Shown here: positions 13,459 through 50,481 of the stretch, piece after piece | How positions within the stretch are numbered: the stretch's first letter is position 1 | How the letters are laid out: every line of letters starts with the position of its first letter | Source of the DNA: Squalus acanthias | Lineage: Eukaryota | Direction: 5' to 3' | Assembly: GCA_030390025.1 (NCBI GenBank) | Contig: CM059431.1 | Span: 108,316,001-108,380,000 of the forward strand | Length of the DNA: 64,000 nt | Position numbers and translations under genes: made by a program | The notes under the pieces: model-generated | Told to the model about the DNA's origin: nothing | The model's database searches: none | Seen by the model: the letters and a program-made list of their open reading frames with translations, nothing else

Positions 13459-14159
13459 GGGCCAAAAATTCATCCCGCTGCAATTGCCGGTTTCCTGCAT
13501 GCCCTGCGCATGCGCTGAAAACCGGCACTTGGTCTTTTGAAAAGGGGGCGGTTCCTCGGTGCATCGCGTGCGCGCTACAGGCTGCGCGCATGCTGTGCAC
13601 TTCGTGTTTTGGACGCGCAGGTAAGGACGGAAGATTTTAGAAATGGAAAAAGGAGGAGTAAGACCCACTTTTAACAAGGTAAGTAGTGAATTAAGTATTT
13701 TTTTGAATTTTTTTTAACAGGTATATCTTTTTTAGAGACTTTAAAGACAGGTAAGTTTATTTTTATAACTTTTTAAAAGATTTTAAATTTTTTCAAAAAT
13801 TTAATTTTTTATTTAAAATGGTTAATTTATTTAACTATACTTATTTTATTAATGTGATGTTTTTTTTAAATTTAATTGAGGTTTAGCTGTTATTTTGGGG
13901 GGGTGTAAGATTCATAGATTTCACAGCACGTATGTGAAACTTATGAATGGAAGATGGTGGGCTGCCATTGGCTCTAACTGAGTCACGTGATCCCACAGCT
14001 CGCACGAATTCACTACGCCGGTGGGATACGCAAGCACTGCCCAGCTGATGTCTGGAACATCAAGTTCGTGCGAGCTGGATCTGAAAAAGCACACGCGGAG
14101 TGAGAGATCGCGGGGAAGCCTTACCCCCGCGGGAACAGAGCGAGATCAATTTCTGGGCC
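13459..14159. mobile_element. Harbinger-type MITE, near-identical to 41849-42591
   Basis: TIRs gggccaaaaattcatc / gatcaatttctgggcc with flanks ATT/AAT. It aligns almost base for base with the 41.8-kb copy. Confidence 0.9.
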
Positions 14160-14179
14160 AATCGTTACCGCAGCCACAA

Positions 14180-18353: not shown

Positions 18354-20544
18354 AATATATTGCGTAGGGAATTGGATGCTGTCCATGCTAATTTTCGTAC
18401 ATAACAACAGTGACTACAATTCAAAAAGCACTTAATTGGCTGTATAACGCTTTGGGACAACCTGAGGTCATGAAATGTGCTACATCAATGCAAGTCTTTC
18501 TTTCTTTCTATGTTTTAATTGCAGCTTTCTCTTCCATTTTCTCCTGAAACAAAATATCCCATCAGACTGGACTCCAGGAAGGAGACCAATTGCTTCATCC
18601 TAGATATAACTGAAGGTGTAAAGAGGTCAAATGTAAATATGGAAGCCATTACATGGCAAAGATTTTATTAGAGCACAATCCATCTAAATGACGGAGAACA
18701 GAAAAATGGAAGCATTTCTTCACGATTTTAAATCAAAGATGCACTGTGAAACGTACACCTACCTTAAACTTTACATATATTTTGCATAGGGAGTACATAA
18801 TATATTACTATATGTGCATGTTCCAATTAACTCTTACAGCTAGGGGTAGACTGACTTATTTGTTCATATTTGTGACATATGTTGAGAAATTAATGTTGCC
18901 ATCAGGGTTAATTATTTACTTCAGCATTACTGGTGTATAATCTGAGGAGTTTGTAATAAAGTAAAGACTTTTGATGCTTACTGAAATTGCCAAAGTCGTT
19001 TTCTCTTAGTTCTGGAAAGTAACGCTTTTTCGTCTGCACCCTTTAAGGGAAATATGGATAACCATGTGAGGTAGAATACAGGGCGATTGAGAGAGAGCAG
19101 GACAGTGGGATTTGTTTTTGATATCTTCAGCACAAACCTGATTGGCCAAATTGCCTCCTTCTCTGCTGTAAACCGCTATAGTTCTAGATTCTCTTAAATG
19201 CTTGTGAAATGGCCACTAACAAAAAAACCACAACAACTTGCATTTATATACCGCCTTTAAAGTTGCAAAGAAGTCCCAAGGCGCTTCACGAGAGCGTTAT
19301 GCAGCCACAGAACCAGGATCAGCTTTCCTAGGGTTTCAGGGACTCTCAGTAACTTACATCATCTGTAAAAACGAGACCTGTAGATGCGCACAGTCACCTA
19401 CATCCAATCCCCTGTAAAGCAGCAGCAACATGAAAGGCAAAGGTAATTTTTCATTAATAATGATGTTTCCATAGCCCATGACAGACCTATAAACCATGCA
19501 GTAGCATAAACAAACAGAGAGGAACATTTTGTCATGAATGTGCGATGTGAGAATCATACTTATGAACGTAAGATATTTGAGGAGTTCACATCATGTCTTC
19601 ATCCTCAGATGATTATTTGCGCCAATAGTCTTTGCAAGAGATCAAAGGTTGGATATGTGGCCCCTGGGAGATTTGGCTTGCCTGGTGCAGCACTTGCATC
19701 GCACACTTTGCAAAATCCTCTGAACCCGGACAATATCATCTAATGAAGATAAGGAAGGTCATCATTTGGGATGCTAAAGCAGCATTTTCCGTATTTGGAC
19801 CATTCCGTGAGGAGAAGGAGTTGCAGGATTTTACAAAAAGAGTTGGCAAAATAAAGGTGGTCTGGGTATGCTTCACAATATGGTCCCCAATAGAAGCTCT
19901 GAAAGTAGGAGGAGCAGATGCAGAAATGTGAAGATGAAGAGGATGGGGATAGGGTGCCCATTCAACCAGCAGCTCAGAAACCACTGCCACAACAGAGACT
20001 GGTGCAGCAGACATTTGTTGATGACTTTTTCAGTGGTGATCAGGGTAGGCCCCCAACAGCAAGCCAACACTCGAATGAATGAGCTCTTGCAATAATCTTG
20101 TCTTCGCTGTCTGTACATCTTATAATGGAGAGAGAATACTTCATGTGCAATAGCACAGAAAAGCAGTAAATAAAATAGATATTGCAGTGGTTCGGTTAAA
20201 TCCCCTCCCGCATTCTTCGGTACTCTGACTCTGGCCTTCTGTGCATCTCCCTCCCTTTACCCCACCATTAGTGGCAGAGGCTTCAACTGGCCTGGCCTTA
20301 CTCTCTGTGACTCCCTTTCTGAAGCCCTCGCTGTCATTTCTCTCTCCACCTTCAAAAATCTTTTCAATCATTTCAACCAAGTTTTTTGACCAAGCCTCCT
20401 AATCTCTGCCTCTGTGGTTTAGGATTCATTTCCTTTATCTATTCTTGTTTATTCCCCTATCCCCTGCCCCATATAACTGTAAAGCACCTTGGGACATTGT
20501 GTACTTTAAAATCACTAGGTAAATGCAGGCTATTGGGATATTAA

Positions 20545-25489: not shown

Positions 25490-26400
25490 AGGAGGAGGAG
25501 GAGGAGGAGGAAGAAGAGGATGAAAGGAGGGAGATGAGGCAGGTTTGATCGCACCAAAAACAGACTGCTTGCATCCATTCTTAGTCATGCTGCTGTATCT
25601 ATAGACCCAAGCACACCCAGTGACAAATTTCTGAGGACACCTACCTTCAACAGGCTCCACATCGCCAGGGAGGTAGTGACAGAGTTGTGGCATCTGCTTG
25701 AGGATGACCTCTAGATAAACTGCACCATAGGAATGGAACGGCCAGTGGCAAACTCAGTAAATCCCTGAACCTTAATGCCTTAGGCTCATTCCAAGCGACC
25801 ACAGGGGACGTCAGCAACATTAATAAATCCGCAGTGCACAGACGCATCAAGCAGGTCACTGATTAATTCTTCACCAGGGAAAACAATTTCATAATCCCCC
25901 TCCCTACACCCATCAAAACTTTGGCAGAAGAATGAGAAAGTCCTGCAATAATTTTGCCTTGCATGATGCCACACAATCGAAGGCATTATTGAAGCACGTA
26001 ATCCCACAGCATTCATAAGCACAAGATGTTCCACTCCACTTCCAACAGCCAGTGACCAGGAAGAGAGAGTCATGCAAGGCAATGCCCCCCTTCTAGTCAG
26101 CACTCATGACCCCTTCATTTTAAGACAATTCCCTCTCTGTGCTTTAACAATTTAAAGGAGATGGAAGACTGGAAGAAGTGCTTCTAGGAGACCAAGGGCA
26201 ATTAGGGATGGGCAATAAATGCTGGCCTTGCCAGCGACGCCCACATCCCACAAACGAATTAAAAAAAAGACAGCCCGTCTGTAGTCCTGACATTGTGGAG
26301 ACAGCCAAGATACAACAAGGCCCTCGCAGCCACCAGAATCATTATTGAACACACTGGCCACGATATTTACTAGGAGCTGATACTTTCTACAGCGTCCTGC
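25490..26400 (+). pseudogene. Highly decayed Harbinger transposase fragment
   Basis: Manual translation gives GSFQATTGDVSNINKSAVHRRIKQVTD and HDPFILRQ, matching the intact transposase (GSFQAAVGDLANISQFAVHRCIRQVT; HDAFILRQ). Confidence 0.75.
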
Positions 26401-27581: not shown

Positions 27582-28474
27582 TGGGTAAAAATTCAGTTGG
27601 TTGCGCCTCCCGTTAGCACCTTAAGAGGGCGCTAATGGGGCGCAAAGCTGCTAACGCCCGGGCGCAGCGATGTTTCCGCCGCTCGGGAACTTAACTTGAC
27701 ATTGTGCGGCGGCGCTAAAACTTACCGCTGCGACCACCTGCGTGCGCAGATTATGACGTCATTCCATGCTGCAACGCCCTTGTGGCGCCCCGGAGCGGAA
27801 ATTGAGTGGCGCCCCCTGCCTTACCGCCTGGCGCATCCAACGACCAGAAGACTGGAACGCTATCAATCGCTGTGGGGCTGGGGGGGGCGCTATTTAAAGG
27901 GGGCCTCTTCCTGTCTTTTATTGTTGGTGGCATTTTTGAACTACGCATTCTGAGAGAGAGAGGGAGAGACTTCTGGAGAGATTCAACGTTGTGTGAAGGA
28001 GTTTTGGGTACTGAGCAGCACTTTGCAGGTTCATTTTGATTTGCCATTCCTTGTATCGATTTAGCAGAGACTGTGGGAGCTGCACTCTGAGCTCTTTGCC
28101 TGGTACTCTCCATTGTTCTTTCCAGCACATTTGATGTGCAAGTCTCTCCAGGCCGAGATTCAAGGCTGCAATGAACAGGATGTGGATGGAAAGCAAGATT
28201 AACCATCCCCTTTAAGAACTGGCCCTTGCCATTGTGTGTGTGTTCCATTGCTGTCTGACATTACATGAGCTTCGCCAGCGCTCCGAGTTAGCGCCTCACT
28301 GCTCGGCCTTTGCGTCTTAAGACAGGTGTGCAGCACCTGCTTTAGCGCTCCACTCACCTCCCGGGGCGGTAAAAGTGAAGTTTCCAGTCAGTGCCGATAA
28401 TTAGCGCCAGGCGCTAATATTTGCGTTCAGACGATATTTGCGCCCCAAATGGGGCGCGACCTAATTTCTACCCC
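27582..28474 (+). mobile_element. Non-autonomous deletion derivative (~890 bp) of the Harbinger at 33401-37603
   Basis: 27582-27990 matches the left end (33401-33830) and 28270-28474 matches the right end (37400-37603). The middle ~280 bp is unrelated filler. Confidence 0.92.
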
Positions 28475-31515: not shown

Positions 31516-33912
31516 TGACACAAGAGGGTGAAATGAAAGGTGAGACTAGGGCAGAGATAGTGCTACAGGAGATTCAAATATTTAAGTTTTACAATAAATT
31601 GGTGAATGTTCATTATAATAAACAGTTTCTACACTTAGATGTTGTCTGTCATGAGGTCTGTACATGTGAAGTTTAGGAACGTAGGAACAGGAGGAGGCCA
31701 TTCAGCCCCTCGAGCCTGTTCCGCCATTCAATGAGATCATGGCTGATCTGTATTGTAACTCCATCTACCTGCCTTGGTTCTGTAACCCTTAATACCCTTA
31801 CCTAACAGAAATCTATCAATCTCAGTTTTGAAATTTGAATAATGAGGGGTTTTGCTAGACCAACTAGGTAGCAACTGTTTCCTCTGGCAAGTGGGTCAAT
31901 GACCAGAGTCATAGTTTTAAAAATATTTGGCAAAAGAAATGGAGGGGAAATGAGGAGAAATGATTTCACACAAAGGGTTGTTATACAGGTGATGTTTGTC
32001 CCCTAGCCTCAACAGCTTTTGGGATGTAGGGTGTTTTTGCGTGCCCCGTGTTTCTATGACTCTCCCTTGAGTCGACCCGTGCCACAAAAACTCCCCGGTT
32101 TGGGTTGTTTCCCTTGGACGGCAGGAGCTTTTGCCAATAGTCCCTGCCCAGCCCGTCGATTAGCGGGTAATCCCACAGAGAGAGAGAGACCAAGGCCAAT
32201 AGGTCTTCTCCTATGCCCGATGCGCAGCGTCCCCAGCAGGATTACTGTGTAACCCGGCCGTGACCGGATGCCACCCGGTTGGTCTTCCGAATTATACCGC
32301 GAACCACAAGCCCCACAACCTCCAAGTTCGGACCCAAGGAGTTACTATGGATAGATTATAAATGACTCAGACGAAAACAAAACGGTTCAGGTTGGTCAAA
32401 GATCGATTCCTTTTTATTACACTCACAAAAACGGCAATCCCTACTCCTCTCGCCTACGGCAGAACGAGTAGGTGACCATGGACACTAGCTTATAACTTTA
32501 GACTAAAATACCCACCCTGTTGGTTACGCTGAACCAGCCCCTTCCCAGAATCTAAGCCTAGATAAGGGAAAAACCCTTCTAACTAAACCCCTCTCCCGAT
32601 TTGGTCAGAACCCACACTTGGAAGCCTCCTCACACACACACCCGTGTTAGCCTTCGTCTTGGACACTTGCAGTTCCTCAGCAGCAAGACACGCGGGCGGT
32701 CCTGGGGATTTCTAGAGGTGTATGCTGGATATAATTACCAGCCCTTGTTGTTGATTCACGTGGTCCCGGGTCTGTTCGACTCCAGAGACAAACCGTGCCT
32801 AACAGAGGCATGCGATGAGGCCTAGAGAGTTACGTTCAGGCGGTACAGTCAGGCACTCACTTCGGGCATTCCTGGAGAGTTGGTGGACGCGTAGTTACGT
32901 GGATAACCCCGTTACAGATGGTAGAGAAAAGCAGGCAAGCAACAGCCAAAAAGCAACCCGCTGCATCCCCAAAGTTCAGCATGTTTATACCCCGTGCAAT
33001 ACACAAAACTTGCTGGGCAATTCCTGGTTACCATGGTCGCAGAGATGCTAGTTGGTTTACCTGGTGATGTCTCTTGTCCTGGATTGGTCATCTTGAAGAA
33101 AACAATGTTAGGCCATTATTGTAGATGAGCAGTACTCGAATTGCTAAATGTTTGTTAAGTTCTTGACTGCTCCTTCATTGAAAGAGTCCAGAGGTGTTAC
33201 TTTTGGCCTCCAAACCTCATTGTCCCTCCAGACATCCCGGCTCCATGGACAAAGGGTGGTTTTCCCCAAAACTCACAAGTTTGAATATGAAAAGGCTCCT
33301 GCCTTCCATGATGTCAGCGTTGAGACAGGTCCCATGGCAAACCAAAAGACAGACAGTTCATCTTCACAGAAACCAACAGGCAGTCCCTTTTAAAGTCCAA
33401 GGGGTAAAAATTCAGTTGGTTGCGCCTCCCGTTAGCGCCTTAAGAGGGCGCTAATGGGGCGCAAAGCCGCTAACGCCCGGGCGCAGCGATGTTTGCGCCG
33501 CTCGAGAACTTAACTAGAGATTGTGCGGCGGCGCTAAAACTTAACGCTGCGACCATCTGCGCGCGCAGATTATGACGTCATTCCATGGTGCAACGCCCTT
33601 GTGGCACCCCGGAGCGGAAATTGAGTGGCGCCCCCTGCCTTACCGCCTGGCGCTTCCAACGACCGGAAGATTGGAACGCTATCAATCGCTGTGGGGCTGG
33701 GGGGGGGCGCTATTTAAAGGGGGCCTCTTCCTGTCTTTTTCTGTGGTCGACATTTATGCACCACTCGTTCTGAGAGAGAGAGAGAGATTCGGAGAGAGAG
33801 AGAGAGAGACTTCTACATTGACTCAACGCTTTGTGAGGTAGTTTTGCCTATTCATCCTAACTTTGTTGCTACTTTAGTTGCTGTCCCTCATTACTTTTCT
33901 TGCAAAGAGAAT

Positions 33913-35073
33913 ATGGGGGCTGCACTGATTGGGGGCATCGTCCTGCTCCAGCTGAATCGGAGGATACAGAGACGCAGAGAGAGAGTGGCAATGATGGCCA
34001 GACGGAGGAGGGCCATCAGGCGCATGTACAGGAGAGCTTACCCTCCCAGGGTATATCGTGAACAGCTCTCCTACATCCATATGTCTGAGGAGCTGTGTTT
34101 GCGAAGGCTGCGATTCAGCAAGGAGGTGGTCACTGAGCTCTGCCACCTGCTGCAGCCAGATCTGCAGCCTCAACTGAGGTCCAGGACGTCTCTGTCGGTG
34201 GCAGTGAAGGTCACAGTGGCTTTGAACTTCTTCGCCACTGGCTCATTCCAAGCTGCTGTTGGGGACCTCGCCAATATCTCCCAGTTCGCGGTGCATCGCT
34301 GCATCCGGCAGGTCACAAATGCCCTCTTCAGAAGGAGACGAGAGTTCATCTTTTTCCCTATGACCCCAGACAAGCAGCGTGACCGCGCTCTGGGCTTTGC
34401 GAGGGTAGCGGGCTTCCCCATGGTGCAGGGCGCCATTGACTGCACGCATGTGGCTTTGCGTGCTCCGCGTGAGAATCCAGAGGAATTCAGGAACAGAAAG
34501 GGGTTCCATTCCTTGAATGTCCAGTTGGTCTGTGACCACAGACAGCTGATACTCGCTGTCAATGCCCACTATCCTGGCAGCTGCCACGATGCTTTTATCC
34601 TGCGCCAGACTACTGTGGCAGAACTTTTCGAGGCAGCGCACCAGCCAGTTGGTTGGCTTCTCGGGGACAAGGGGTATGCATTGAGCACCTGGCTGATGAC
34701 ACCGCTCCGTACGCCAAACACCCCTGCTGAGCTGCGGTACAATGAAAGCCATCAAGCAACCAGGAACATTATTGAGCGCACAATCGGCGTGCTGAAACAA
34801 CGGTTCCGCTGTCTGGACCATTCCGGAGGAGCCCTGCAGTACTCGCCTGAGCAAGTATCGAACTTTGTAGTCGTGTGCTGCATGTTGCACAACATGGCAA
34901 TCCTCAGGACCCAGCCAATGCCACCAGGCCTTGTAGCACCACTAGAGGAGGAGGAGGAAGAGGAGGAAGAGGACGAGGACGATGATCATCAGCAGCACCA
35001 AGGCGGGAGGGCGGCCCACAATGGTCAAACTGCAAGGGCCGTCCGTCAACGGCTAATAGCAAGCCGCTTCTAG
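33913..35073 (+). CDS. Harbinger DDE transposase (HARBI1-like nuclease), intact, 386 aa from the first ATG
   Basis: Open ORF with catalytic motifs GAIDCTHV, LLGDKGY and RNIIERTIGVLKQRFRCL, plus RNRKGFHSLNVQLVCD, PGSCHDAFIL, CCMLHNM and an acidic tail. A TATTTAAA lies near 33711 and AATAAA at 35235. Confidence 0.95.
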   Translation: MGAALIGGIVLLQLNRRIQRRRERVAMMARRRRAIRRMYRRAYPPRVYREQLSYIHMSEELCLRRLRFSKEVVTELCHLLQPDLQPQLRSRTSLSVAVKVTVALNFFATGSFQAAVGDLANISQFAVHRCIRQVTNALFRRRREFIFFPMTPDKQRDRALGFARVAGFPMVQGAIDCTHVALRAPRENPEEFRNRKGFHSLNVQLVCDHRQLILAVNAHYPGSCHDAFILRQTTVAELFEAAHQPVGWLLGDKGYALSTWLMTPLRTPNTPAELRYNESHQATRNIIERTIGVLKQRFRCLDHSGGALQYSPEQVSNFVVVCCMLHNMAILRTQPMPPGLVAPLEEEEEEEEEDEDDDHQQHQGGRAAHNGQTARAVRQRLIASRF

Positions 35074-35367
35074 GGCCCCTGCCATTGCTACCAACATTAA
35101 TCAACCCAGCACGCAACCCCTAAGCCGGCCAAGGCACCAATAATTCCAACCACCAGCCATGTATATTTTGAATACAGAAACTTATTTATTTTACAAACTC
35201 TGTGTGTGTCAATTCCTCATGACAAACTCATAGAAATAAACACAAAAAAACAGTCAATAACATAACTGGTTCTCACAACCTGGAGATAATGTCCAAAACA
35301 CTAAACAAAAGTTGGACCATGAACCTCGGCCTTTAATAAAAAAATGACCAGCATTTTGTCACACCTC

Positions 35368-37245
35368 CTACTTTTTGCCCTTCGAGCGTGATCTCCTTCC
35401 CTTGCGCACTTCCCCCCTTCTAACCCTACTGCTCCTCCGTAATGGGACCTCAGTGGCTGCAGCAAGGCTGGTGGAAGGCTGCTGCTCGTCAGACCCTGAC
35501 ACTGCAGATGCCCCTGAAGGACGGCCTCGACCACTTCTGGGCCTGGAGGGCCCGGCTGCAGACTGCACCAACTCTGCATGGGCGGCAGCAGTCTGTCCTA
35601 CAGGCGGTGGCAAGTGCAGTGGAGAAGTGACAGTGTTGGCAGCAGGAATGCTGTCATCGTGAGAGAGGACAGCAACTCCCTGCTCGCCCGACACACTGGC
35701 ACTCCCACGGGGCAGCACTTCAGCATCCGGAGCAATCTGCCGGAGAACAGATTGCTGGCCTGCTGCGGCGCGGTGACAGCCCCGGGGACATGTGCACGAA
35801 CCATCGAGGTTGGCAGCAGTCTGTGCTCGCGTGGCCTCAATCTGAGTCTGTATGAGAGCAGTCAGAGATGGGATCACGGCAGCCAGTGACTGAATTGCAG
35901 CACTAAGCATTAGTGTGGCATCCGCCTGTGCTACAGCGAAGTGCTCCACACTCCTTGCCAGTGACTCAATGCATTCGGGCACCCTTCCCACTGCACCCAT
36001 AAGCTCAGTGTGCATGCCCACCGCCTGGGTGTTCATTTCTGCAATCAGCCGCTCCTCCTCTGCGTCCATTGCAGTAGGAGTGTCTGGCATACTCTCCCTC
36101 TGGGGAGAAGGCCCCCGTTCTTCCCTACCCCCCCCCATGGCGTTGCTGCAGCCCGCTGGGTCCTGGAGCTTCACCCTCATCAGCCCCTTCCCCCCTGCTC
36201 CCCTCCGGGGAAGGCGTGTTCCCAGTGTGGGCATGGGCTTCCTCGGGAGAGGGTGGCACTGATGCTCTGGCTTCCTCTTCCTCCTCAGCTGCAGCATCAC
36301 TCCCAGTGGCAGCTTCAGGGCCCGTCTCCTCAGCTGGTGAATCACCATCTGAAAGCAGGGAGGTACAAGAGTGGCTTTAGCGTGAGGACAGGGTGGCAGT
36401 AAGGGAGGAATAAGTGCAGCGAGTTAGCAAGTTGGATTGAAAGTGTCAAAGGCTGGTGTTGTGAGGGACAAGTGGAAGGACAGAGGACAAAAAGGTGATG
36501 ACCTTACCATTGCTGTCCAGAACGGGGTCGGCGTCTCCAGTGGCGACGGGACCGATCACCCGGCTTGCCACAATCCTGTGGACGCGCTCCTCCAGATCGC
36601 TGAGGGGTTGCAGCTGAGGCCGCCCTCCACCTGTCCGTTGCTGCTGTCTCCTATTATGAGCCAGCTTAGCCTGCAAGAAAAAGGACAGCATCTGAGTAAA
36701 TATACAGCCATGGTCTTGCCTGATGTGCCTCCCATAGGTGAATAGCCCTTACTGTATGCAGCCATGGTCTTGCCTGATGTGCCTCCCATAGGTGAATAGC
36801 CCTTACTGTATGCAGCCATGGTCTTGCCTGATGTGCCTCCCATAGGTGAATCGCCCTTACTGTATGCAAAGTGTGGAATGTGTGTGTGTGTTTGATGAAA
36901 GGGCCATAGGTGTTGGATGAGTGTTGTGCATTGGGGTTTTAAGACCCTCTGGCCATAGAGTGAGGTTGAGATGGAGGGATGGAGAGGTATTGAGAAAAAG
37001 CCACTCACCCTGACGACCCGAGTGAGGTCGTTGAACTTTTTGCGGCATTGAGTATGGGTCCTGGGCACCATGCTCCTGGAGGAGACGCTCTGAGCCACCT
37101 CCCTCCACACTCTTCTGAACTCGCGTGGCAAAGGCCTCCTGCCACTCTCAGGGAACAGCATACATCGTCTGCGCTCCACTGCGCCAACCAGAGCATCCAA
37201 GGCCCGCTCGGTGAAGCGATGAGCGCGTTCTCTCACCCTCTCCAT
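35368..37245 (-). CDS. Harbinger Myb/SANT-like DNA-binding protein, 3 exons (37245-37009, 36670-36508, 36348-35368), with a 1-bp frameshift in the G9 run at 36128-36136
   Basis: Exon 1 reads RFTERALDALV..VWREVAQSVSS..RTHTQCRKKFNDL and exon 2 reads AKLAHNRRQQQRTGGG. Splice sites are canonical (AGG|GTGAGT, ttcttgcag|, ATG|GTAAGG, ctttcag|) with phases 0 and 1. Confidence 0.85.
36705..36868. repeat. 54-bp tandem repeat, 3 copies, in intron 1 of the Myb gene
   Basis: Unit cagccatggtcttgcctgatgtgcctcccataggtgaatagcccttactgtatg. Confidence 0.95.
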
Positions 37246-38029
37246 GCTTGGCAGCAAAATGGATTCACAGGTCTCTCCAGGCTGAGATTCAAGGCTGCAA
37301 TGAGCAGGGTGTGGCTGGGGAGCAAGTGGCCCCCCCCGCTTTAAGAAGTGGCCGGCGCCAGTGTGTCTGTGTTCCCTCGCTAACTGGCAGCAGCTGCGCT
37401 GCGCTCGCGCGCTGAGTTAGCGCCTCACTCCTTGGCCTTTGCGCCTTAAGACAGGTGTGCAGCGCCTGATTTAGCGCTCCACTCACCTCCCGGGGCGGTA
37501 AAAGTGAAGTTTCCAGTCAGTGCCGATAATTAGCGCCAGGCGCTAATATTTGCGTCCAGACGATATTTGCGCCCCAAATGGGGCGCGACCTAATTTCTAC
37601 CCCCAAAAGTCCAATCTCCATTTTTAAAATGCAGCCCACGTGCGTCTCCATTTTAAAAGGGTACATATCCATTTTAAACGTCCAAAAATCCTTGAGGCAC
37701 TGATGTTGGCACCGGCCAAACCCTACAGGGGGGAGAGCGTTCCAGATTTCGATCTACCAATCTGAACAGCAACTTAAAAGAATATAAAAGGTGAGCCATT
37801 GTTGTTTATTGCTTGGCAATGTAACATAGTTGTGGACAGATGTGTAAGTGTAAAATCTCCAGTCCAGGTGCAGAGCCTACGGGACTGGATCACATTTGCA
37901 CATTTTCCAGGGGGGCTGACCTCGGGTCATCTTGTAAGGTCAGCCCATTGGCAATTTGAGCAGCAAGCTCCATGCTGGGAGTGGACCACAGGTCAGGAAG
38001 TCACTAATTTAACTGGACCAGCCACATAA

Positions 38030-38645
38030 ATACTGTGGCAACAAGAGCACGTCAGAGGCTAGGTATTCTGTGGCGAGTGTCTCACCTCCTGACACCCAAA
38101 GCCTTTCCACCATCTACAAGGCACAAATAAGGAGTGTGATGAATACTCTCCACTTGCCTGGATGAGTGCAGCTCCAACAACACTCAAGAAGCTCGACACC
38201 ATCCAGGACAAAGCAGCCCACTTGATTGGCACCCCGTCCATTACCTTAAACATTCACTCCCTCCACCACCGGTGCACCGTGGCTGCAGTGTGTACCATCT
38301 ACAAGATGCACTGCAGCAACTCGCCAAGGCTTCTTTGGCAGCACCTCCCAAACCCGCAACCTCCACCATCTAGAAGGACAAGGGCAGCAGGCGCATGGGA
38401 ACACCACCACCTCCAAGTTCCCCTCCAAGTCACACACCATCCTGATTTGGAAATATATCGCTGATCCTTCATCGTCGCTGGGTCAAAATCCTGGAACTCC
38501 CTCCCTAACAGCACCGTGGGAATACCTTCGCCACACAGACTGCAGCGGTTCAAGAAGGCGGCTCACCACCACCTTCTCAAGAGCAATTAGGGATGGGCAA
38601 TAAATGCTGGATTTGCCAGCGATGGCCACATCCCATAAAATAAAA
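38030..38645 (+). mobile_element. LINE ORF2 C-terminus and 3' UTR fragment (CR1/L2/Jockey group)
   Basis: TIYKAQIRSVM..SPLAWMSAAPTTLKKLDTIQDKAAHLI..LHHRCTVAAVCTIYK. The tail is shared with the SINEs at 51425 and 60570. Confidence 0.8.
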
Positions 38646-39483
38646 AAAAAGAATAATTGCAGGGCAGCATATTCATACAGCAGCAGCAACTGTTAAAGGG
38701 CTGCCGCTGTCATTTAAAGGAGTTGCCTTGTCATTTGCCAAATGAAATGTATTTTTTCTCTACAACTGTTGGAGTCTGATTGCTGTAGAACTATCTCTTT
38801 TGAGCACTCTTCCTTACAGGTGCTTCTGGTTACAGGTGCAGGAAAGGAAGGTTGGTCTCTTTATAGCAAAGGGGCCCAAAGGATCAACACTGTCTTGCAT
38901 GTTTCGGATTATGTTCCAAAAAAGGGAAGATTGCCACGGTGAGGTTGTATAGCATTTGCCTGCGCAACGTATGTTACCATCTTATGCATGCCCCTTAATA
39001 TGGAACAGCTTGGTTGAGGCCACAAGCAAAGCACTCAACCAAGTTTTCAGCATTTTTACTTATGTACTTGTATGCCCATTTATCTTCAGGGCAAACATTG
39101 GAGCTGGAAATTAAATATGCACCTCTCGTTGCACTTAAATCTTTAAAGTTGTGTCTACAAAGTGAGCTTTCAACTAAACAGTGGTGCATGATGCAGATTC
39201 ATTTGTTCACACAAATAATGAGATGCAGGTTGTGCCTTTGGATATCAGTGCCTGTACACCGGAGGAGAGTTACAAGAATGAATCCTAGCTTAAAAACCCT
39301 CAGCTACTCAGATCGTCTCAAGGACCTTGGTCTAATTACTTTAGAGCAGCATTTGACTTCGAGGTGACCTGATAGAGGTCTATAAAACCATTAAAGGGCT
39401 GGATAGCGTCCTTATTGATAAGTTATTCCAGTTTTACAGATTGAGGGGGACCAGGGGACATGTGCTTAAACTATGTAAGAGTA

Positions 39484-39834
39484 ATGTGAGAAGTCGCACA
39501 ACACCAGGTTATAGTCCAACAGCTTTATTTGAAATCACAAGCTTTTGGAGCGCTGCTCCTTCGTCAGGTGAAGTGAAGAGATACATATAGACACAGCATA
39601 TATAGTCAGAGAACACTGCCAGATGATTGCAGTTAATCTTTCCTTTAACTGTAGTCGTCTGGCAGTGTTCTCTGACTATATATGCTGTGCCTATATGCAT
39701 CTCTTCACTTCACCTGATGAAGGAGCAGCGCTCCGAAAGCTTGTGATTTCAAATAAAGCTGTTGGACTATAACCTGGTGTTGTGCGACTTCTCACATTTG
39801 TCCACCCCAGTCCAACACCGGCATCTCCACATCA
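39484..39834. mobile_element. Palindromic Penelope-like inverted-pLTR element (copy A) inserted in a CR1 fragment
   Basis: 153-bp inverted arms (39484-39636 / 39645-39797) with an 8-nt loop and a 37-nt extension. The 12-bp TSD TATGTAAGAGTA lies at 39472-39483 and 39835-39846. Confidence 0.8.
39710..39746 (+). ncRNA. Minimal type-I hammerhead ribozyme motif
   Basis: tcac-CTGATGA-a-GGAGC-agc-GCTCC-GAAA-gc-tt-gtga: helix I tcac/gtga, 5-bp helix II and palindromic AGCT helix III. Confidence 0.8.
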
Positions 39835-41166: not shown

Positions 41167-41848
41167 GAGGGAACAATTCGGTTGCTTTGTGCCTCCCATC
41201 AGCGCCCTATGAGGGCCCTAATGGGGCGCAAAGCAACTAGCACCAGCGCGCGGCGCCACAAACGCCTCCCGCGAAATTCAGCAGGGAGGTTAGCGGCGGC
41301 GGTAACCGGTAGCGCCCCGCGGCGCTGTGCCTCTGGCGATCACGTCATTGCCGTGCGCAGCGCCCTGCTCGTGCCCCGGCCGTGATCTTCAGTAGCGCCC
41401 CCTGACTTACCGCCGGACGCTATGTCCGAAAGGGTCAGGGGGGCGTACGTGGAGTCGGGGTGGCGATATTTAAAGGGATGGTGTCGGGCGGCCATTTTTG
41501 TTGCTGGTCGCCTGCCAGCACCTGCCCCCATTGCCGTTCCCGGCCTCCTGTGCAGCACCCCCCGTGGGGTGCTGGCTGCGCTCCGTGAGCCCGGCACTCC
41601 TCTTGAGTGCTGGGCTCTTTTGGCGGCACTCTGATCCCTGGTGGCCCAGCTGGGCCCTGGATCGTGCTACGCTAGGCCCCTCCCCTTTAACAAGGGGAGG
41701 AAGGCCTGCAGTAATGCGGCCATGTAGCGCCGCAATATTCACTGGAGTATTAGGAAAAGGAAGAGTAAGGCTTTTTAGTTTCACATGGGTGCGCAATAAA
41801 ACGTTATGTTGTTAAGTTTCTGTTGTTTACTTAAAGCACATAAATATT

Positions 41849-42591
41849 GGGCCGAAAATTCATCCCGGTGCGCGAGAGTATGCACTGCGTACTCTCGCGT
41901 ATTCCCACTCCAATTGCCGGTTTTCTGCATGCCCTGCGCATGCGCTGAAAACCGGCAATTGCTCTTTTGAAAAGGGGGCGGTTCCTCGGTGCATCGCGTG
42001 CGCGCTACAGGCTGCGCGCACGCTGTGCACTTCATGCTTTGGACGCGCAAGTAAGTACGGAAGATTTTGGAAATGGAAAAAGGAGGAGTAAGACCCACTT
42101 TTAACAAGGTAAGTAGTGAATTAAGTATTTTTTTGAATTTTTTTTAACAGGTATATCTTTTTTAGAGACTTTAAAGACAGGTAAGTTTATTTTTATAACT
42201 TTTTAAAAGATTTTAAATTTTTTCAAAAATTTAATTTTTTATTTAAAATGGTTAATTTATTTAACTATACTTATTTTATTAATGTGATGGTTTTTTTTTA
42301 AATTTAATTGAGGTTTAGCTGTTATTTTGGGGGGGTGTAAGATTCATAGATTTCACAGCACGTATGTGAAACTTATGAATGGAAGATGGTGTGCTGCCAT
42401 TGGCTCTAACTGAGTCATGTGATCCCACAGCTCGCACAAATTCACTACTCCGCTGGGATACGCAAGCACTGCCCAGCTGATGTCTGGAACATCAAGTTCG
42501 TGCGAGCTGGATCTGAAAAAGCACAAGCGAGGTGAGAGATCGCGGGGAAGCCTTACCCCCGCGGGAACAGAGCGAGATGAATTTCTGGGCC
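41849..42591. mobile_element. Harbinger-type MITE
   Basis: TIRs gggccgaaaattcatc / gatgaatttctgggcc (13/16 match) and TSD ATT/ATT. It is near-identical to 13459-14159. Confidence 0.9.
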
Positions 42592-42828
42592 ATTATTCTT
42601 TTGCACCACTTTCCTCTCTTGCCCATTCTTGGTTGCTGGGTGGCAAGTCACCTTTTAAGTTGTTTGATGATGAATGGGAAGACATGAATTGACGGGGACC
42701 AATGGGGGGATGTTCAAGGGGTGGTTGGTTGATTGCAGGACTGCTTTGTGTCAGTGACATTGGGTGGGAGGGGGCGCGGTAAAGAGTAGCCATTGTATGT
42801 GCTTGTGTCATGGGTCCACTGGGGCAAC

Positions 42829-44430
42829 CTAAGTGAACTTTGCATTAATAAGGGTATCCCTGGCATCCAGGGCAGAAGAAATGTGAGCAGCTGGTGGTGC
42901 ATTGCCCTCATCACCTTCCTCCTCCTCCTCCTCCTCGGAATCATCCGAAGAGAATCTGAGCTCTTTGCCTTGTTCCTCCTGCAGGTTCAAACCTCGCTGC
43001 TGCGCAGCACACCATGACCATTCTGGACACCCTGGCTGGTGTGTACTGAAGGGCACCTCCAGATCTGTCTAGGTGCCTGAAGCACATCTTCAGTATGCCG
43101 ATGGCTTGTTCGATCACACATCTGCTGGTCATATGGCAATCATTGTAGTGCTGTTGGGCTTCATTGGTTGGGTTTCTGACAGGTGTCATCAGCCAATTTT
43201 GAAGTGGGCATCCCTTGTCTCCTAGCAGCCACCCCTTAAGTCTGCTTGCAGGTCTGAAGACGCCAGGGAGCTTGGACTGCCGCAGGACGAAAGCATCATG
43301 GCAGCTCCCCGGGAATCGCTCGCACAACTGCAGAAATATCTTTTTGTGGTTGCACACCAGCTGCACATTGATGGAGTGGAAGATATGGGGTTGATGAATG
43401 CTCCTGGTTGTTCTGGGGTTCCCGGATTCCCACATGTATGCAGTCAATGACACCCTGCACCTGTGGGAAGCTAGCCAGAGCTGCAAACCTGAGTGCCCTC
43501 TCATTCCGACTGGCGTCATTGCAGGCGAAGTTGATATAATTGCCGGCCCTGGCAAACAAGCCATCAATTATCTGTCTTATGCGTTTGTGGGCCACCAACT
43601 GGGAGATTCTAGATATGTTTCTGGCAGAGCCCTGGAAGGATCTGGAGGCAAAAAAGCTGAGGGTGGTTGTGACTTTGAGAGCCACTGGTAACACATAGCC
43701 AACAGGTCCAGCAGACAGCAGGTCTTCTTCTAGAAGGCTGCAGATGTCTGCCATCACCTGATGCGACAACCTGAGCCTCCTGAAGCACTGCTGTTCCGAC
43801 ATGTCATGGAAATTTAGCCTCTGCCTGTAAGACCCTGTTTCGCGGATAGTGCCTCCCGCGAGCTGCTCCCCTGTCTGCAGCTCCTCTCTCTGCTGCTCCC
43901 CTCTCTGCTGCTCCCTTGTCTACAGCTCCTCTCTGTGCTGCTCCCCTGTCTACAGCTCCTCTCTGTGCTGCTCCCCTGTCTGCAGCTCCTCTCTGTGCTG
44001 CTCCCCTGTCTACAGCTCCTCTCTGTGCAGCACCTCTCTGTGTAGCTCCTCTCTGTGCAGCTCCCCTCTCTGCTGCTCCCCTGTCTGCAGCTCCTCTCTG
44101 TGCAGCACCTCTCTGTGCAGCTCCCCTCTCTGCTGCTCCCCTGTCTACAGCTCCTCTCTGTGCAGCTCCTCTCTGTGCAGCTCCCCTCTCTGCTGCTCCC
44201 CTGTCTGCAGCTCCTCTCTGTGCAGCTCCTCTATGTGCAGCTCCCCTCTCTGCTGCTCCCCTGTCTGCAGCTCCTCTCTGTGCAGCACCTCTCTGTGTAG
44301 CTCCTCTCTGTGCAGCTCCCCTCTCTGCTGCTGCCCAGCTACAGGTCTCTGAACAGCAGGCTGGTGCTGGTCATGTTGTTCCTTGTCCGAGGTCCAATCT
44401 AAGGCAGCCAAAGTGCCACCAATTCTGATG
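42829..44430 (-). pseudogene. Harbinger transposase pseudogene
   Basis: MSEQQCFRRLRLS, FPQVQGVIDCIHV, HSINVQLVCNH, PGSCHDAFVL, WLLGDKG and RCVIEQAIGILK are spread over shifted frames. Confidence 0.9.
43862..44340. repeat. 15-bp-unit minisatellite in the 5' coding region of the transposase pseudogene
   Basis: Variants of ctcctctctgtgcag, ctcccctctctgctg and ctcccctgtctgcag. Confidence 0.95.
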
Positions 44431-46585: not shown

Positions 46586-48168
46586 ATGACACAACATGCA
46601 AAAAAGCGGGCTCCAAAGTTCTCCAATGCAGCATTGGAGGCCTGGGTACAGGAAGCGGACAGGAGAAGAGAGGTCCTGAATCCGCAGGGGCCAAAAAGCC
46701 CTCCAGACAGACACTGCAAAGGCAGTGGGAGCAGAAGCCATGGAGGTCAATGCCAGCAGTGTTGCCCCGAGGACTTGGATGCATTGCCGAAAGAAGTTCA
46801 ATTACCTCACACAAGTGGCCAAGGTCAGTGAATGCATCTTCAAATGCCATATCCCACCAACTGCACCACTAGCCTCACACACTGCTCAATGCACCACACC
46901 CCCATCACTAACCTACCAACAATCTCTATCAATCATGACTCATACCTCACGTTCATATGCTCCGCCTTACTCTCACACACTTAGCACTGCTCCAAGCTTC
47001 ACACCCACATCTCACAGCTTGCACATACTGCCAGCTATTCAACCATGACAGGCATATCACCCAAACACATTGCACCACACTCGCTGACAAACTTCCCTCT
47101 TTCTTGCAGGACAAGATGGCGCACAACTGCAAGCAGCAGCAGCTAACCAGAGGGGGACAGGCGTCCCTGCATATCCTAACCCCAATGGAGGAGACAGTAC
47201 TGGCCATTATTGGAGCGGCTGTGACTAAGGCCCTGGCCAGCGGCGGGGCTGAAACCATTGAAGATGACTGTATGTTCATACCTAATCCTCCTTCTCGCAT
47301 CCCACTTCCCCCTCATCCCACAATCTCTTCTGATTTACAAGCTGCACATGGTGTAGGACCTACAGAAGAACGCTGATGGGTATACACAATGAAAAGCTTG
47401 GTGCATTGGCAGGCCTGCCAGAGATCCTGAATGCAATGCAAGGAGCATGGAGGAGTCTGGCACCAACCTTGCACAGGGCTTTTTGCAGAGCTTGGAACCC
47501 ATCCTTTCCAGCATGGAAGTGGTGGGCAAATCCATTAGCGCACTTGTGGACCCAACTATGATGCAGCGTCTGATGGCCGTTGTCTCAGCTTCCATTACAG
47601 CACAAGCAGAAGCCACCCAATGTCTGAGTGCTCCAGTGCAAGCTCAGACTGAAGTCATGCAAGCTCAGCTTTTTGCCACGCCAGCAGAGACTGCTGCCAC
47701 ACAAGCACAGACTGCTGCCATCATGGCTATGTTTACCAATGTTGAAAAGGGCCTGCAGGGTGTCACAGCGGTCCAGCAATCTGTCCTCCAACAGATTACT
47801 AGAATTGCTAAGGCGCGTCCAGGGGGAGTGGCAGTGGCACCGTGGAGCACGAACCTGCTGTCCTCTCTCAGGTTGACAGCATTCGTCCTCCCACCACTGC
47901 CACTCCACCAGTGCCCTAGCTTTTGCCTGTCAGTCAGTCAGGCTTGACTGCTGCCGCCCATGCCGAGATGGTGCAGTCTGAAGCTGGGCCTTGTAGGCCC
48001 AGAGATGCTCGAGGTCGACCTGCAAGGCCATCTGCAGTCTCCCCTACTGAGAGTCAGCAGCCTTCCACCAGCCATGCGGCAGCCACTGGGGTAGCACTGC
48101 GTAGGAGCACTAGGACAGGCAAAGACAAACGGAAAACAGGCGATAAGGGAATGCACAAGGGTGGTTAA
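46586..48168 (+). pseudogene. Harbinger Myb/SANT pseudogene (multi-exon)
   Basis: KRAPKFSNAALEAWVQE..RTWMHCRKKFNYLTQVAK|gtcagt, then ttcttgcag|DKMAHNC..TRGG. The C-terminus AAAHAEMVQSEAGP..LRRSTR matches the young copy. Frameshifted. Confidence 0.85.
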
Positions 48169-48537
48169 TTGACTTTGGAATGTAATATTGGATGGTTTGA
48201 TTTATAAATCTGGTTTGGTATGTTTGTTTTGTGGTGGCTTTTATTGTAACATTGTGGCCAAGAGGACGCTGTGATGGTCAGTAACAGAGGGAGTTAAGGT
48301 GTGGGTGAATGGGGAATTGGGGTTGTGTTCACTGCTACTGCAGTCGAATGAGTCAATCATGGACAGCCCGGCCAGAAAGAGGCTGTGTTGGTTGCCTCCC
48401 CCTCCTCTTCTTCCTCTTCCTCTTCCTCCACCTCAGCTCTTCACCGTATACATGGTGGCATTGGTTGTGCCCTCATGATAGCGAGGTTGTGGAGCATGCA
48501 ACAGACCACAATGAATCTTGAGACACGCTCTAGCGAG

Positions 48538-48720
48538 CAACATTCCCTATAAACTGCACGGCTGCTCTCCTCTCTGCCAGTCCCGCTCTCCTCTCTGCCG
48601 GGCCCGCACAGCCCGGGACCGACTTTTGCAATGTTGAAGATTGCGCATGCAGGAATCTGTGAATGGGCCGTGCAGCCCCTTAAAGGGAACGCGCACCCAA
48701 AAAAAATTATGGGAACATTG
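48538..48720. mobile_element. hAT-type MITE (183 bp)
   Basis: Termini caacattccctataa / ttatgggaacattg with 8-bp flanks CTAGCGAG / CTGGCAAG (6/8). It splits transposase coding sequence. Confidence 0.6.
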
Positions 48721-49443
48721 CTGGCAAGTAATGCAGGGCCCCTCCAGAATGGTCCAGGCCATGGAAGCGTTGTTTAAGGACTCCAATGGTCAGCTCTGCT
48801 CTATCAGATTCCTTGTGGCAGCATGGCTTTCATCATATGAATGCTGCCCACGTGTGCTTGTGTTCTGCACCGGAGTCATAAGCCAGGTGGTCAGCAGACA
48901 GCCCTTGTCACCCAGGAGCCACCCTCTGGCTAGTTGTGGTGGCTCAAATGTGGACGGTACAGTGGACTGCCGCAGAATGAAGGCATCATGGCTGCTGCCA
49001 GGATTGTGCTGCCTGTGGTCACACACCAGCTGGACATTGAGGGAACGGAATCCCTTCTGGTTGGAGTACATCTCCGAATTCACGTGCGGTGCCCGGAAAA
49101 CGACATGTGTGCAGTCAATGGCGCCCTGCACCACGGGGAAGCATGCTATCCTGGCGAAGCCGCGTGCTCACTCTGCCTGCTTCTCTCTGGCAAGAGAGAA
49201 TGAAATGTATTCACCTCTCTTTGCATACAGAGCCTCAGTGGACACCCTTATGCAACAGTGCACGGCGAACTGAGAGATATTGGAAATATCGCCTGTTCCA
49301 GCCTGGAAGGAGCCCGACGCATAAAAGTTCATGGCCACCCTTGCCTTGACAGCCACTGTGCGGAGATGCCGGTGTTGGACTGGGGTGGACAAAAGTGAGA
49401 AGTCGCACAACACCAGGTTATAGTCCAACAGCTTTATTTGAAA

Positions 49444-49481
49444 TCACAAGCTTTCGGAGCGGCTGCTCCTTCGTCAGGTGA
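49444..49481 (-). ncRNA. Minimal type-I hammerhead ribozyme motif
   Basis: Reverse complement reads tcac-CTGACGA-a-GGAGC-agcc-GCTCC-GAAA-gc-tt-gtga, with an intact core. Confidence 0.8.
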
Positions 49482-49728
49482 AGTGAAGAAATACAAATGG
49501 GCACAGCATATATAGACAGAGAACAATGCCAGACGACTACAGTTAATCTTTCTAACTGCCTTTTATCACACCTCGGCAGAGAGACAATCACGGCAATCAA
49601 ACATTACATCAAAGACGATAGCAAAATACAACAAAGACAATGAGGTGGGGTCACAAGGGATCTAATGTGTCAGATGCTCTCTGTTGATCTCTGACTATAT
49701 ATGCTGTGCCCATTTGTATTTCTTCACT

Positions 49729-49766
49729 TCACCTGACGAAGGAGCAGCCGCTCCGAAAGCTTGTGA
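49729..49766 (+). ncRNA. Minimal type-I hammerhead ribozyme motif
   Basis: tcac-CTGACGA-a-GGAGC-agcc-GCTCC-GAAA-gc-tt-gtga, with an intact core. Confidence 0.8.
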
Positions 49767-50481
49767 TTTCAAATAAAGCTGTTGGACTATAACCCGGTGT
49801 TGTGCGACTTCTCACTTTTGACAGCCACTGGCAATGCCATCCTCACCCAGCTCTGAGGCTGCAGTTCTGCCTGCAATAGGTGGCAGATTTCAGTGAGCAC
49901 CTCCTTAGTGAAGTGGAGATGTCGCATACACTGTTCCTTGTTGAGGTTGAGATAGGAGAATTGCTCCCTGGGTGGATATGGCCTCCTGCTGAGAGCCCTT
50001 CTCCCCCTCCCCTTCTCCCTCTACGAGCAGCTTGTGCTCCTCTGTGTCGCCTCTGCTCATTCTCCCTGTCCTGCTGCAGGCCAAGGGGGATACAAACTAC
50101 AACACCCATGCCTGGAGCAACTGGTCTGAGCAGAAGCCTTGGAAGTAACCTGCCGCACCACTCCCTGGAGACTTCAGCAAATTCAAATAAGACACCAAAC
50201 CAAGAAACACCTCTACAAACTCACCAAGAGCCAATAGAAATCAATCAGCAACTAACCTGAAAGCAGGTGATGATCCCTTTAAATAGCACTGGTGGGGGTT
50301 CCTTTCTGCTGCTGAATGTATGTTCAGCTGTGCGAGGTTAAGAGAGGGTTGTTAGCTCCAGCGTTGAGGTCGAAAATGGCAACGCTGGTGTCAAATCAGC
50401 GTTGCACCTCGGACACCATGTTGGACCTGAATTGGCACCTGTAGAACCGGGCGCTGCAGCGCCAAATTTAGTGGCATGCAA

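Follow-up and report, generated by a model that had tools for sequence, protein, structure and literature searches.

The movement of Harbinger transposons requires two proteins, the DDE transposase together with a protein of Myb-like type that binds the ends and the transposase and provides nuclear import (PMC2836001, PMC9710019 and PMC9392472, in their accessible parts). The closest described system is Harbinger3_DR/Harbinger3N_DR of zebrafish, and a rebuilt Harbinger3_DR jumps in human cells (Sinzelle et al. 2008, as cited in the accessible parts of PMC2836001 and PMC3016246). For Harbinger-Snek of sea kraits, a horizontal transfer has been dated, copies have been counted across the genome and expression has been documented; one species is reported to carry 269 fully intact copies, and in another both genes are covered by RNA reads (accessible text of PMC8437027). 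The domesticated host genes HARBI1/NAIF1 and MSANTD1-4 have the same two protein origins but are conserved across jawed vertebrates (PMC9392472, likewise in part). As for cartilaginous fish, Harbinger repeats are already on record for the genomes of the whale shark and the grey reef shark (accessible text of PMC8455134 and PMC12498223), while none was found in the elephant shark, and checking other cartilaginous fish was advised (PMC9179366).

Here we analysed a 64-kb stretch of Squalus acanthias DNA (64,000 nucleotides, hereafter the window), in which positions 33401-37603 are a full-length copy of a multi-copy, two-gene DNA transposon of the PIF/Harbinger type, an ordinary member of this well-known family. 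Our search of the literature, Repbase and Dfam aside, found no paper describing the element's own family, which may be listed in the supplementary repeat tables of PMC8455134 and PMC12498223. The features of the locus are as follows.

27583..28474, forward strand: non-autonomous relative of 892 bp, non-coding and bearing the same ends, 5 kb from the element
33398..33400, forward strand: left copy of the putative 3-letter target duplication, CAA, fitting A-N-N-Y-[3]-R-N-N-T
33401..33412, forward strand: left terminal inverted repeat, 12 bp, 11/12 alike to the right end
33413..33720, forward strand: left subterminal region, CpG-rich, with five copies of a TTAGCGCC-like motif; putative CRE-like word at 33573, CCAAT-like word at 33670 and TATA-like word at 33711
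33913..35073, forward strand: unbroken gene for the Harbinger DDE transposase (386 aa), with D176/D226/E288
35074..35367, no strand: AT-rich 3′ region shared by the two convergent genes, with putative AATAAA signals at 35235 and 35335 (forward) and 35190 (reverse)
35368..36348, reverse strand: Myb-like exon 3, an acidic linker and, past the frameshift, a stretch predicted to be helical, with a basic tail at the C-terminus
36125..36136, reverse strand: run of nine G (36136-36128) and then an in-frame stop, the frameshift
36508..36670, reverse strand: Myb-like exon 2 with a conserved TGGG..LEE stretch; 22 of the 77 Myb-like relatives match the exon at E<=0.01
36701..36868, no strand: three 54-bp tandem repeats in Myb-like intron 1, 97-98% alike
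37009..37245, reverse strand: Myb-like exon 1, encoding 79 aa with the Myb/SANT trihelix domain (Pfam PF13873)
37400..37591, reverse strand: right subterminal region, CpG-rich, with five copies of the TTAGCGCC-like motif
37592..37603, reverse strand: right terminal inverted repeat, 11/12 alike to the left end
37604..37606, forward strand: CAA, the right copy of the putative target duplication; a second unit of a host 8-letter repeat comes next

Like zebrafish Harbinger3_DR/Harbinger3N_DR, the element combines DDE transposase and Myb-like genes with repeated subterminal motifs and a probable 3-letter duplication in a longer palindromic target (PMC2836001, PMC9710019, PMC9392472 and PMC3016246, in their accessible parts). 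Terminal inverted repeats, a feature of the superfamily, had been claimed in the original prediction and were found at 33401 and 37603, where 11 of 12 letters match (14 of 18 over a longer stretch). PIF/Harbinger repeats are usually 25-50 bp long (PMC9179366), whereas the ends of this element are shorter, at 12 bp. With at most one mismatch, the terminal 12-mer occurs at six places in the window, four of them being the ends of the element and of the short relative, which shares them. The number of TTAGCGCC-like motifs clearly exceeds expectation in both subterminal regions (five vs. 0.15 expected on the left and five vs. 0.11 on the right, with 0/1000 shuffles matching either count), the pattern having been picked after a k-mer count and then tested by shuffling; these motifs are likely Myb-binding sites. 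The observed/expected CpG ratio is 1.17 at the left end and 1.10 in the last 204 letters of the right end vs. 0.46 for the whole window, and 3 of its 199 bins of 320 letters reach at least 1.17. The ends are thus CpG-rich, as was predicted, but this richness is no sign of the youth of this copy, because the short relative, already 4-5% diverged, scores alike (1.06 and 1.08 at its ends).

The family is highly multi-copy. Of the three public DNA runs used (X1, X2 and X8, the window's own reads not being among them), 40,869 contigs of X1 and 59,363 of X2 were placed over 32400-38100. The summed depth in these two runs, which is not a copy number, was 2e5-2e6 over the element, compared with 4e3-1.3e4 in the left flank, and it fell to about 1 at 37748-37938. 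The short relative agrees with the element in 92% of 400 letters and 85% of 369 letters, and in its outer parts in 95.5% of 334 and 95.9% of 194 letters; its private letters turn up as loose ends in X2 and X8. Together with a depth that is higher at the ends than in the interior in X1, X2 and X8, this relative corresponds to a Tourist-like derivative. The element also occurred in sets under eight organism labels, which we did not take for eight hosts; the runs may contain shark DNA under another label.

The CAA letters stand on both sides of the element, and the flanks of the filled site fit the pattern A-N-N-Y-[3]-R-N-N-T. The pattern is present at 2/2 sites vs. 1.7% of background positions in this small sample, where the fit of the short relative presumes the loss of three letters at its left end. 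When compared to the Harbinger3_DR target consensus, the site agrees in 7 of 15 letters (9 of 15 on the other strand), a value of 7 being reached by 8.5% of the window positions on one strand; the duplication in Harbinger3_DR is CWG (PMC2836001, PMC9710019, PMC9392472 and PMC3016246, in part), whereas here it is CAA/TTG. The duplication had been described as exact, and this has to be qualified, as CAA lies within a small tandem repeat, and the sole element-free contig (X1, depth 41.8) is short of the element and of 11 further letters rather than 3. This difference calls for a separate 8-letter duplication beside the 3-letter CAA. A 9-letter duplication with two filler letters at the junction was ranked below CAA, since the target pattern is matched by the two-unit allele alone.

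The transposase fully bears out the original prediction of an unbroken 386-aa protein with the DDE triad. Its reading frame at 33913-35073 matches the Pfam domain DDE_Tnp_4 (PF13359) typical of the superfamily (E 2.8e-39, profile positions 1-158 covered), the structural model has a pLDDT of 82.6, and the protein looks functional. In a fold search nothing reached E<=0.001, and the entries ranked highest, all weak, were DDE transposases and integrases; a sequence search of solved structures had no hits. A complex prediction for transposase residues 1-335 with Myb-like exon 2, run without alignments, reached a score of 0.30 and a mark of 0.34. Named shark and ray proteins make up 113 of the best 120 matches, with a top identity of 71%. 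Elasmobranch proteins annotated as “putative nuclease HARBI1” (P0001 and P0002 of Pristiophorus japonicus, and others) belong to the same lineage, the two best being 61-71% identical; most of these annotated relatives are partial or devoid of a catalytic residue, and all three residues are kept in only 45 of the 107 that cover the full length, whereas the element retains D-D-E. The presence of relatives in sharks and rays suggests a long residence of the family. In a quick tree built from the 99 rows, out of 121, that span at least 85% of residues 50-330, the transposase sits among species-specific paralogues. The same tree contains several cross-species, catalytically broken clades of shark and ray relatives, and the element lies outside them.

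The second gene is likewise recognizable as the separate Myb-like gene of PIF/Harbinger elements, though frameshifted: exon 1 matches Myb_DNA-bind_5 (PF13873, E 1.6e-08), and both introns have GT..AG ends and are predicted to be spliced. When spliced on the best sites, the gene acquires a frameshift in the G9 run and stops at residue 207 of about 460, the full protein being longer than the typical 300-400 aa (PMC9710019, in part). The natural homologue P0125 is collinear with the three exons and in frame across the G9 point; up to P0125 residue 264 it pairs with the acidic frame, and from 264 onward with the downstream frame. Among 77 relatives, the alternative, acidic and downstream frames of exon 3 have 0, 2 and 6 matches, respectively. 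Two ways of restoring the frame were examined and rejected. Within the 20 letters tested there is just one other exon-2 donor, a weak one, and its use with exon 3 leads into a 351-aa frame whose first 69 residues match 0/77 relatives; the only nearby donor/acceptor pair that could splice out the stop is 28 letters apart, which is too short for an intron. The G9 frameshift is the only lesion found in either gene. Thus, the “spliceable” partner gene of the original prediction has its domain and introns but is not intact, and the element cannot be called near-intact: the transposase and the ends are, the Myb-like gene is not. An autonomous active Harbinger has both reading frames intact, and since the Myb-like gene ends here at 207 aa, this copy is likely non-autonomous. 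The truncated product might keep some function, as exons 1 and 2, its most conserved parts, are retained.

We consider it probable that the locus is a transposon copy with an intact transposase gene and a frameshifted Myb-like gene, and hence non-autonomous. That the copy is instead fully intact and autonomous, the extra G being a homopolymer assembly error, appears improbable. Long-read assemblies do slip in homopolymers, the sole lesion sits in a G run, and both the transposase and the ends are unbroken; but the in-frame form in the public runs is four letters shorter, not one (a single X8 contig carrying all the depth, four contigs in X1 and six in X2), and no one-letter-shorter form was seen among the 12 of 16 indel rows listed. 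Moreover, the copy has other private changes, such as the letter at 34641, absent from all placed contigs of the three runs, and its (GA)n and poly-Glu tracts leave the reading frames unbroken. The gain in the G run is likely a real mutation. Weighing against the frameshifted reading, the four-letter-shorter form makes up less than 1% of the summed depth at this point in X1 and X2. A co-domesticated transposase/Myb gene pair of the HARBI1/NAIF1 type would agree with the names of the database relatives and with the catalytically broken clades, but it is hardly credible for this locus. Domesticated genes are single-copy and devoid of transposon ends, whereas the element, unlike HARBI1/NAIF1 and MSANTD1-4, is multi-copy and of the mobile type, keeps its ends and a probable target duplication, has a broken Myb gene and groups with species-specific paralogues; no cross-species orthologue appeared among the best 120 matches. 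The multi-copy state of the family, together with the occurrence of the site without the element in X1, refutes domestication; the conserved single-copy locus named beforehand as counter-evidence was not what we found.

Compatible with a non-autonomous copy is a further possibility, that the family still transposes in the species today via intact master copies elsewhere, the insertion being polymorphic; we regard this as rather unlikely. It is favoured by the low divergence (24 differences in 2,331 letters vs. eight X8 contigs, with 84% of sampled 31-mers present in X1), by the retained catalytic residues, by end-to-end joints of 37603 to 33401 in X1 and X8, and by the depth of the element-free form in X1, which is about that of other single joints. 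On the other hand, X1 and X2 are probably without the window's haplotype: among the 16 left-flank positions listed, 10 have no X2 contig with the window's letter, and over the unique right flank the depth is about 1. The element-free form, seen in one of the three DNA runs, may consequently belong to a paralogous site or to another, related species. Of the contigs placed in X1, 78% are less than 99% alike, flanks included. The copy is young in sequence terms, at 0.6-1% divergence, as had been predicted, yet the predicted recent or current activity does not follow. Sharks mutate slowly, with a measured rate of 7e-10 per site per generation (PMC10587355), so this divergence can be old, corresponding to about 8-15 million generations (4-74 million over the confidence interval of the rate). 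In the RNA run X21, none of about 10 million reads fell on the element or on the high-copy repeat of the right flank, hence this run is uninformative. The fuller version, with the family mobile in living sharks, masters supplying both proteins, the X1 contig being the other allele and the end-to-end joints being excision circles or fresh tandem insertions, is a shade more doubtful still.

Returning to the copy with a frameshifted Myb-like gene, its mechanism and history can be proposed with Harbinger3_DR of zebrafish and Ping/Pong of rice as models. The Myb-like protein would bind the repeated subterminal motifs, carry the transposase into the nucleus and set it on the 12-bp ends; the transposase would excise the element and insert it at the loosely palindromic A-N-N-Y-[3]-R-N-N-T, duplicating three letters. 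The copy at 33401-37603 would have been inserted in this way in the past and would later have gained letters in the G run of exon 3. Its cut Myb-like protein would keep the DNA-binding domain and lose about 250 residues, including the basic tail, which is likely a nuclear import signal. An intact Myb-like gene elsewhere, provided that it is expressed, could still mobilise the copy or make use of its transposase.

By description, the family resembles Harbinger-Snek, as both are young, high-copy vertebrate Harbingers with full-length, single-gene and non-coding variants (PMC8437027, in part). As it stands, the finding matters little, the superfamily being already listed in shark genome papers, but it bears on the remark in PMC9179366 by adding another low-divergence Harbinger family in cartilaginous fish. 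The element is a usable start for a consensus-based activity test, and rebuilding the family as a transposition tool is plausible, with zebrafish Harbinger3_DR as a precedent. Proof of activity would make the family the first Harbinger known to be active in a cartilaginous fish. It would then be a two-component vertebrate transposon that is native rather than rebuilt, has short ends and prefers palindromic targets, and could serve as a tool for gene transfer. It would also offer a native vertebrate Harbinger for the study of the mechanism, with transposition measurable in very slowly mutating genomes.

The Harbinger element in the window is a full-length copy and probably a non-autonomous one. 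Its parts and the related sequences in the 64-kb window are as follows.

33401-37603: full element, 4,203 bp, with inverted repeats at both termini
33913-35073, + strand: transposase ORF, 386 aa
37245-37009, 36670-36508 and 36348-35368, - strand: exons of the Myb-like gene, convergent with the transposase gene
27583-28474: short relative, 892 bp, non-coding, with the same ends as the element
4636-5021 with 7133-7348; 19538-19672; 25643-25917; 42989-43829; 46619-50020: decayed Harbinger remnants, at least five further in the window

The original prediction of an unbroken transposase proved correct: the frame is open and spans the whole DDE_Tnp_4 profile (E 2.8e-39), D176, D226 and E288 are all kept, and the structure model is confident (pLDDT 82.6). 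The coding differences listed against the family majority (I18, F107, F147, A242) spare the catalytic residues. The D-D-E triad is complete in only 45 of the 107 relatives spanning all three catalytic columns. Among the best 120 matches, named proteins of sharks or rays number 113; they represent 11 species, a single sawshark supplying 71 of them. The top identity is 71%. An elasmobranch is therefore the likely host. A quick tree (99 of 121 rows) places the element's transposase among species-specific paralogues, outside the cross-species clades.

The predicted spliceable Myb/SANT partner was found with its three exons and the domain in exon 1 (E 1.6e-08), but the joined exons comprise 1,381 coding letters, a multiple of three plus one, and the frame ends after residue 207, immediately past a nine-G run at 36136-36128. 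The element thus cannot be called near-intact in both genes. An assembly slip in an otherwise intact copy could produce such a lesion, since it sits in a homopolymer, and the four-letter-shorter, in-frame form makes up less than 1% of the summed depth in the public DNA sequencing runs X1 and X2, which counts against the frameshift reading. Nevertheless, we consider a slip improbable. The natural Myb-like homologue P0125 can be aligned to exons 1 and 2, then to the acidic frame as far as its residue 264, where the match passes to the downstream frame; the 77 Myb-like relatives give no match to the alternative frame, two to the acidic and six to the downstream frame; and the shorter form appears in a contig of a third run, X8, across the G run, as well as in 4 X1 and 6 X2 contigs. 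Taken together, these comparisons indicate at the sequence level that the stop is a frameshift and not a faulty gene model. The 250 residues lost include a basic tail, which recurs in the decayed relative at 47845-48162. As the zebrafish Myb-like protein carries the transposase into the nucleus (PMC2836001, PMC9710019), we infer that this tail is probably the signal for nuclear import.

Domestication of the gene pair, which the original prediction had named as the outcome contrary to its own, is hardly credible: one X1 contig (depth 41.8) links 33391 to 37606, and this element-free form of the site, absent from X2 and X8, rules it out. As for the claimed target duplication, CAA adjoins the element on both sides, but the empty contig skips 4,214 letters, i.e., the element plus 11, not plus 3. 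Nine identical letters lie at 33392-33400 and, 2 letters past the element, within 37604-37614; the empty contig has them once, therefore 11 letters were gained. Most simply, the element would have inserted into an allele carrying two copies of an 8-letter host unit. The two-unit allele matches the pattern A-N-N-Y-[3]-R-N-N-T (background 1.7%), in agreement with the zebrafish Harbinger target consensus (PMC3016246), while the one-unit form does not; the short relative's site also matches, assuming 3 letters lost at its left end. In X2, the window's letter is missing at 10 of the 16 left-flank positions that figure among the 40 best-supported of 203 rows. The window's haplotype is probably absent from X1 and X2, so that the empty form is no proof of within-species polymorphism. 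Joints of the right end to the left (37603 to 33401) occur in X1, where 1 letter intervenes (depth 45), and in X8, where 11 do (depth 36); they may stem from head-to-tail tandem copies or from circles.

The predicted terminal inverted repeats are present (11/12 letters alike). A TTAGCGCC-like motif recurs five times in each subterminal region, where 0.15 and 0.11 copies would be expected, and is absent from the interior; such a count was reached in 0 of 1000 shuffles, a flattering figure, as the pattern was picked after a k-mer count. By analogy with known Harbingers, the Myb-like protein would bind such motifs, recruit the transposase and import it into the nucleus, and the transposase would move the element by cut-and-paste, duplicating three target letters and, as a rule, excising cleanly (PMC2836001). 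The ends are CpG-rich as predicted (observed/expected 1.17 and 1.10 vs. 0.46 for the window), but this gives no fine date because the ends of the 4-5% diverged short relative are equally so.

The element was carried by 20 public runs, 17 of them with half or more of its sampled words. Contigs compared over 32400-38100 (40,869 from X1, 59,363 from X2) gave summed depths, not copy numbers, of 2e5-2e6 for the element and 4e3-1.3e4 for the left flank, dropping to about 1 at 37748-37938; the ends were deeper than the interior. This shows that the family is highly repeated. Loose ends in both X2 and X8 carry letters private to the short relative.

Compared with the eight X8 contigs listed, the element differs at 24 letters out of 2,331 (1.0%), and X1 carries 84% of its sampled words, i.e., about 0.6% private change. 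By sequence the element is thus young, as proposed, but with the 7e-10 mutations per site and generation of the epaulette shark (PMC10587355) the divergence equals roughly 8-15 million generations (4-74 million across the rate's confidence interval), a rough estimate relying on another species' rate and inflated by any subfamily or species distance. Low divergence therefore does not imply current activity, and mobility today appears doubtful.

The remnant at about 46600-50020 still carries the two genes, arranged convergently as in the element, and 41169-41421 is 68% like the element's left end. Fold-back elements of one family lie at 39483-39798 (154-letter arms, 95% complementary, 8 letters between) and 49359-49820, the latter interrupting a decayed Harbinger transposase gene. 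The window also contains a 690-bp CpG-rich repeat in two copies (13473-14160 and 41903-42592, 96.8% alike), a reverse transcriptase fragment at 8312-8998 (RVT_1, E 3e-22) with numerous related LINE-like pieces, and a short-period repeat tract at 43807-44425 yielding low-complexity Pfam matches.

In four cross-species clades of shark and ray Harbinger transposases (P0023/P0026/P0059; P0010/P0012; P0004/P0005; P0006/13/15/16/19/25/96), the catalytic triad is broken and the pairs compared are 77-90% identical; their sequences make them candidates for domesticated transposase genes that cartilaginous fish would have in addition to HARBI1. The closely similar Myb-like proteins P0122, P0129, P0133, P0134 and P0146 may be orthologues of one domesticated gene of sharks and rays.

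A search of main texts, with Repbase and Dfam outside it, found no description of this family. A teleost survey reported no Harbinger in elephant shark and urged a check of other cartilaginous fish (PMC9179366); Harbinger repeats are reported from the whale shark (PMC8455134) and grey reef shark (PMC12498223) genomes. Sea kraits have young, intact, expressed Harbingers (PMC8437027), a rebuilt zebrafish Harbinger is mobile in human cells (as cited in PMC2836001, PMC3016246), and Spy, a naturally active element that also belongs to the PHIS group, has been put forward as a tool (PMC11304231). The family described here adds to a superfamily already reported in sharks, young intact vertebrate Harbingers being already known.
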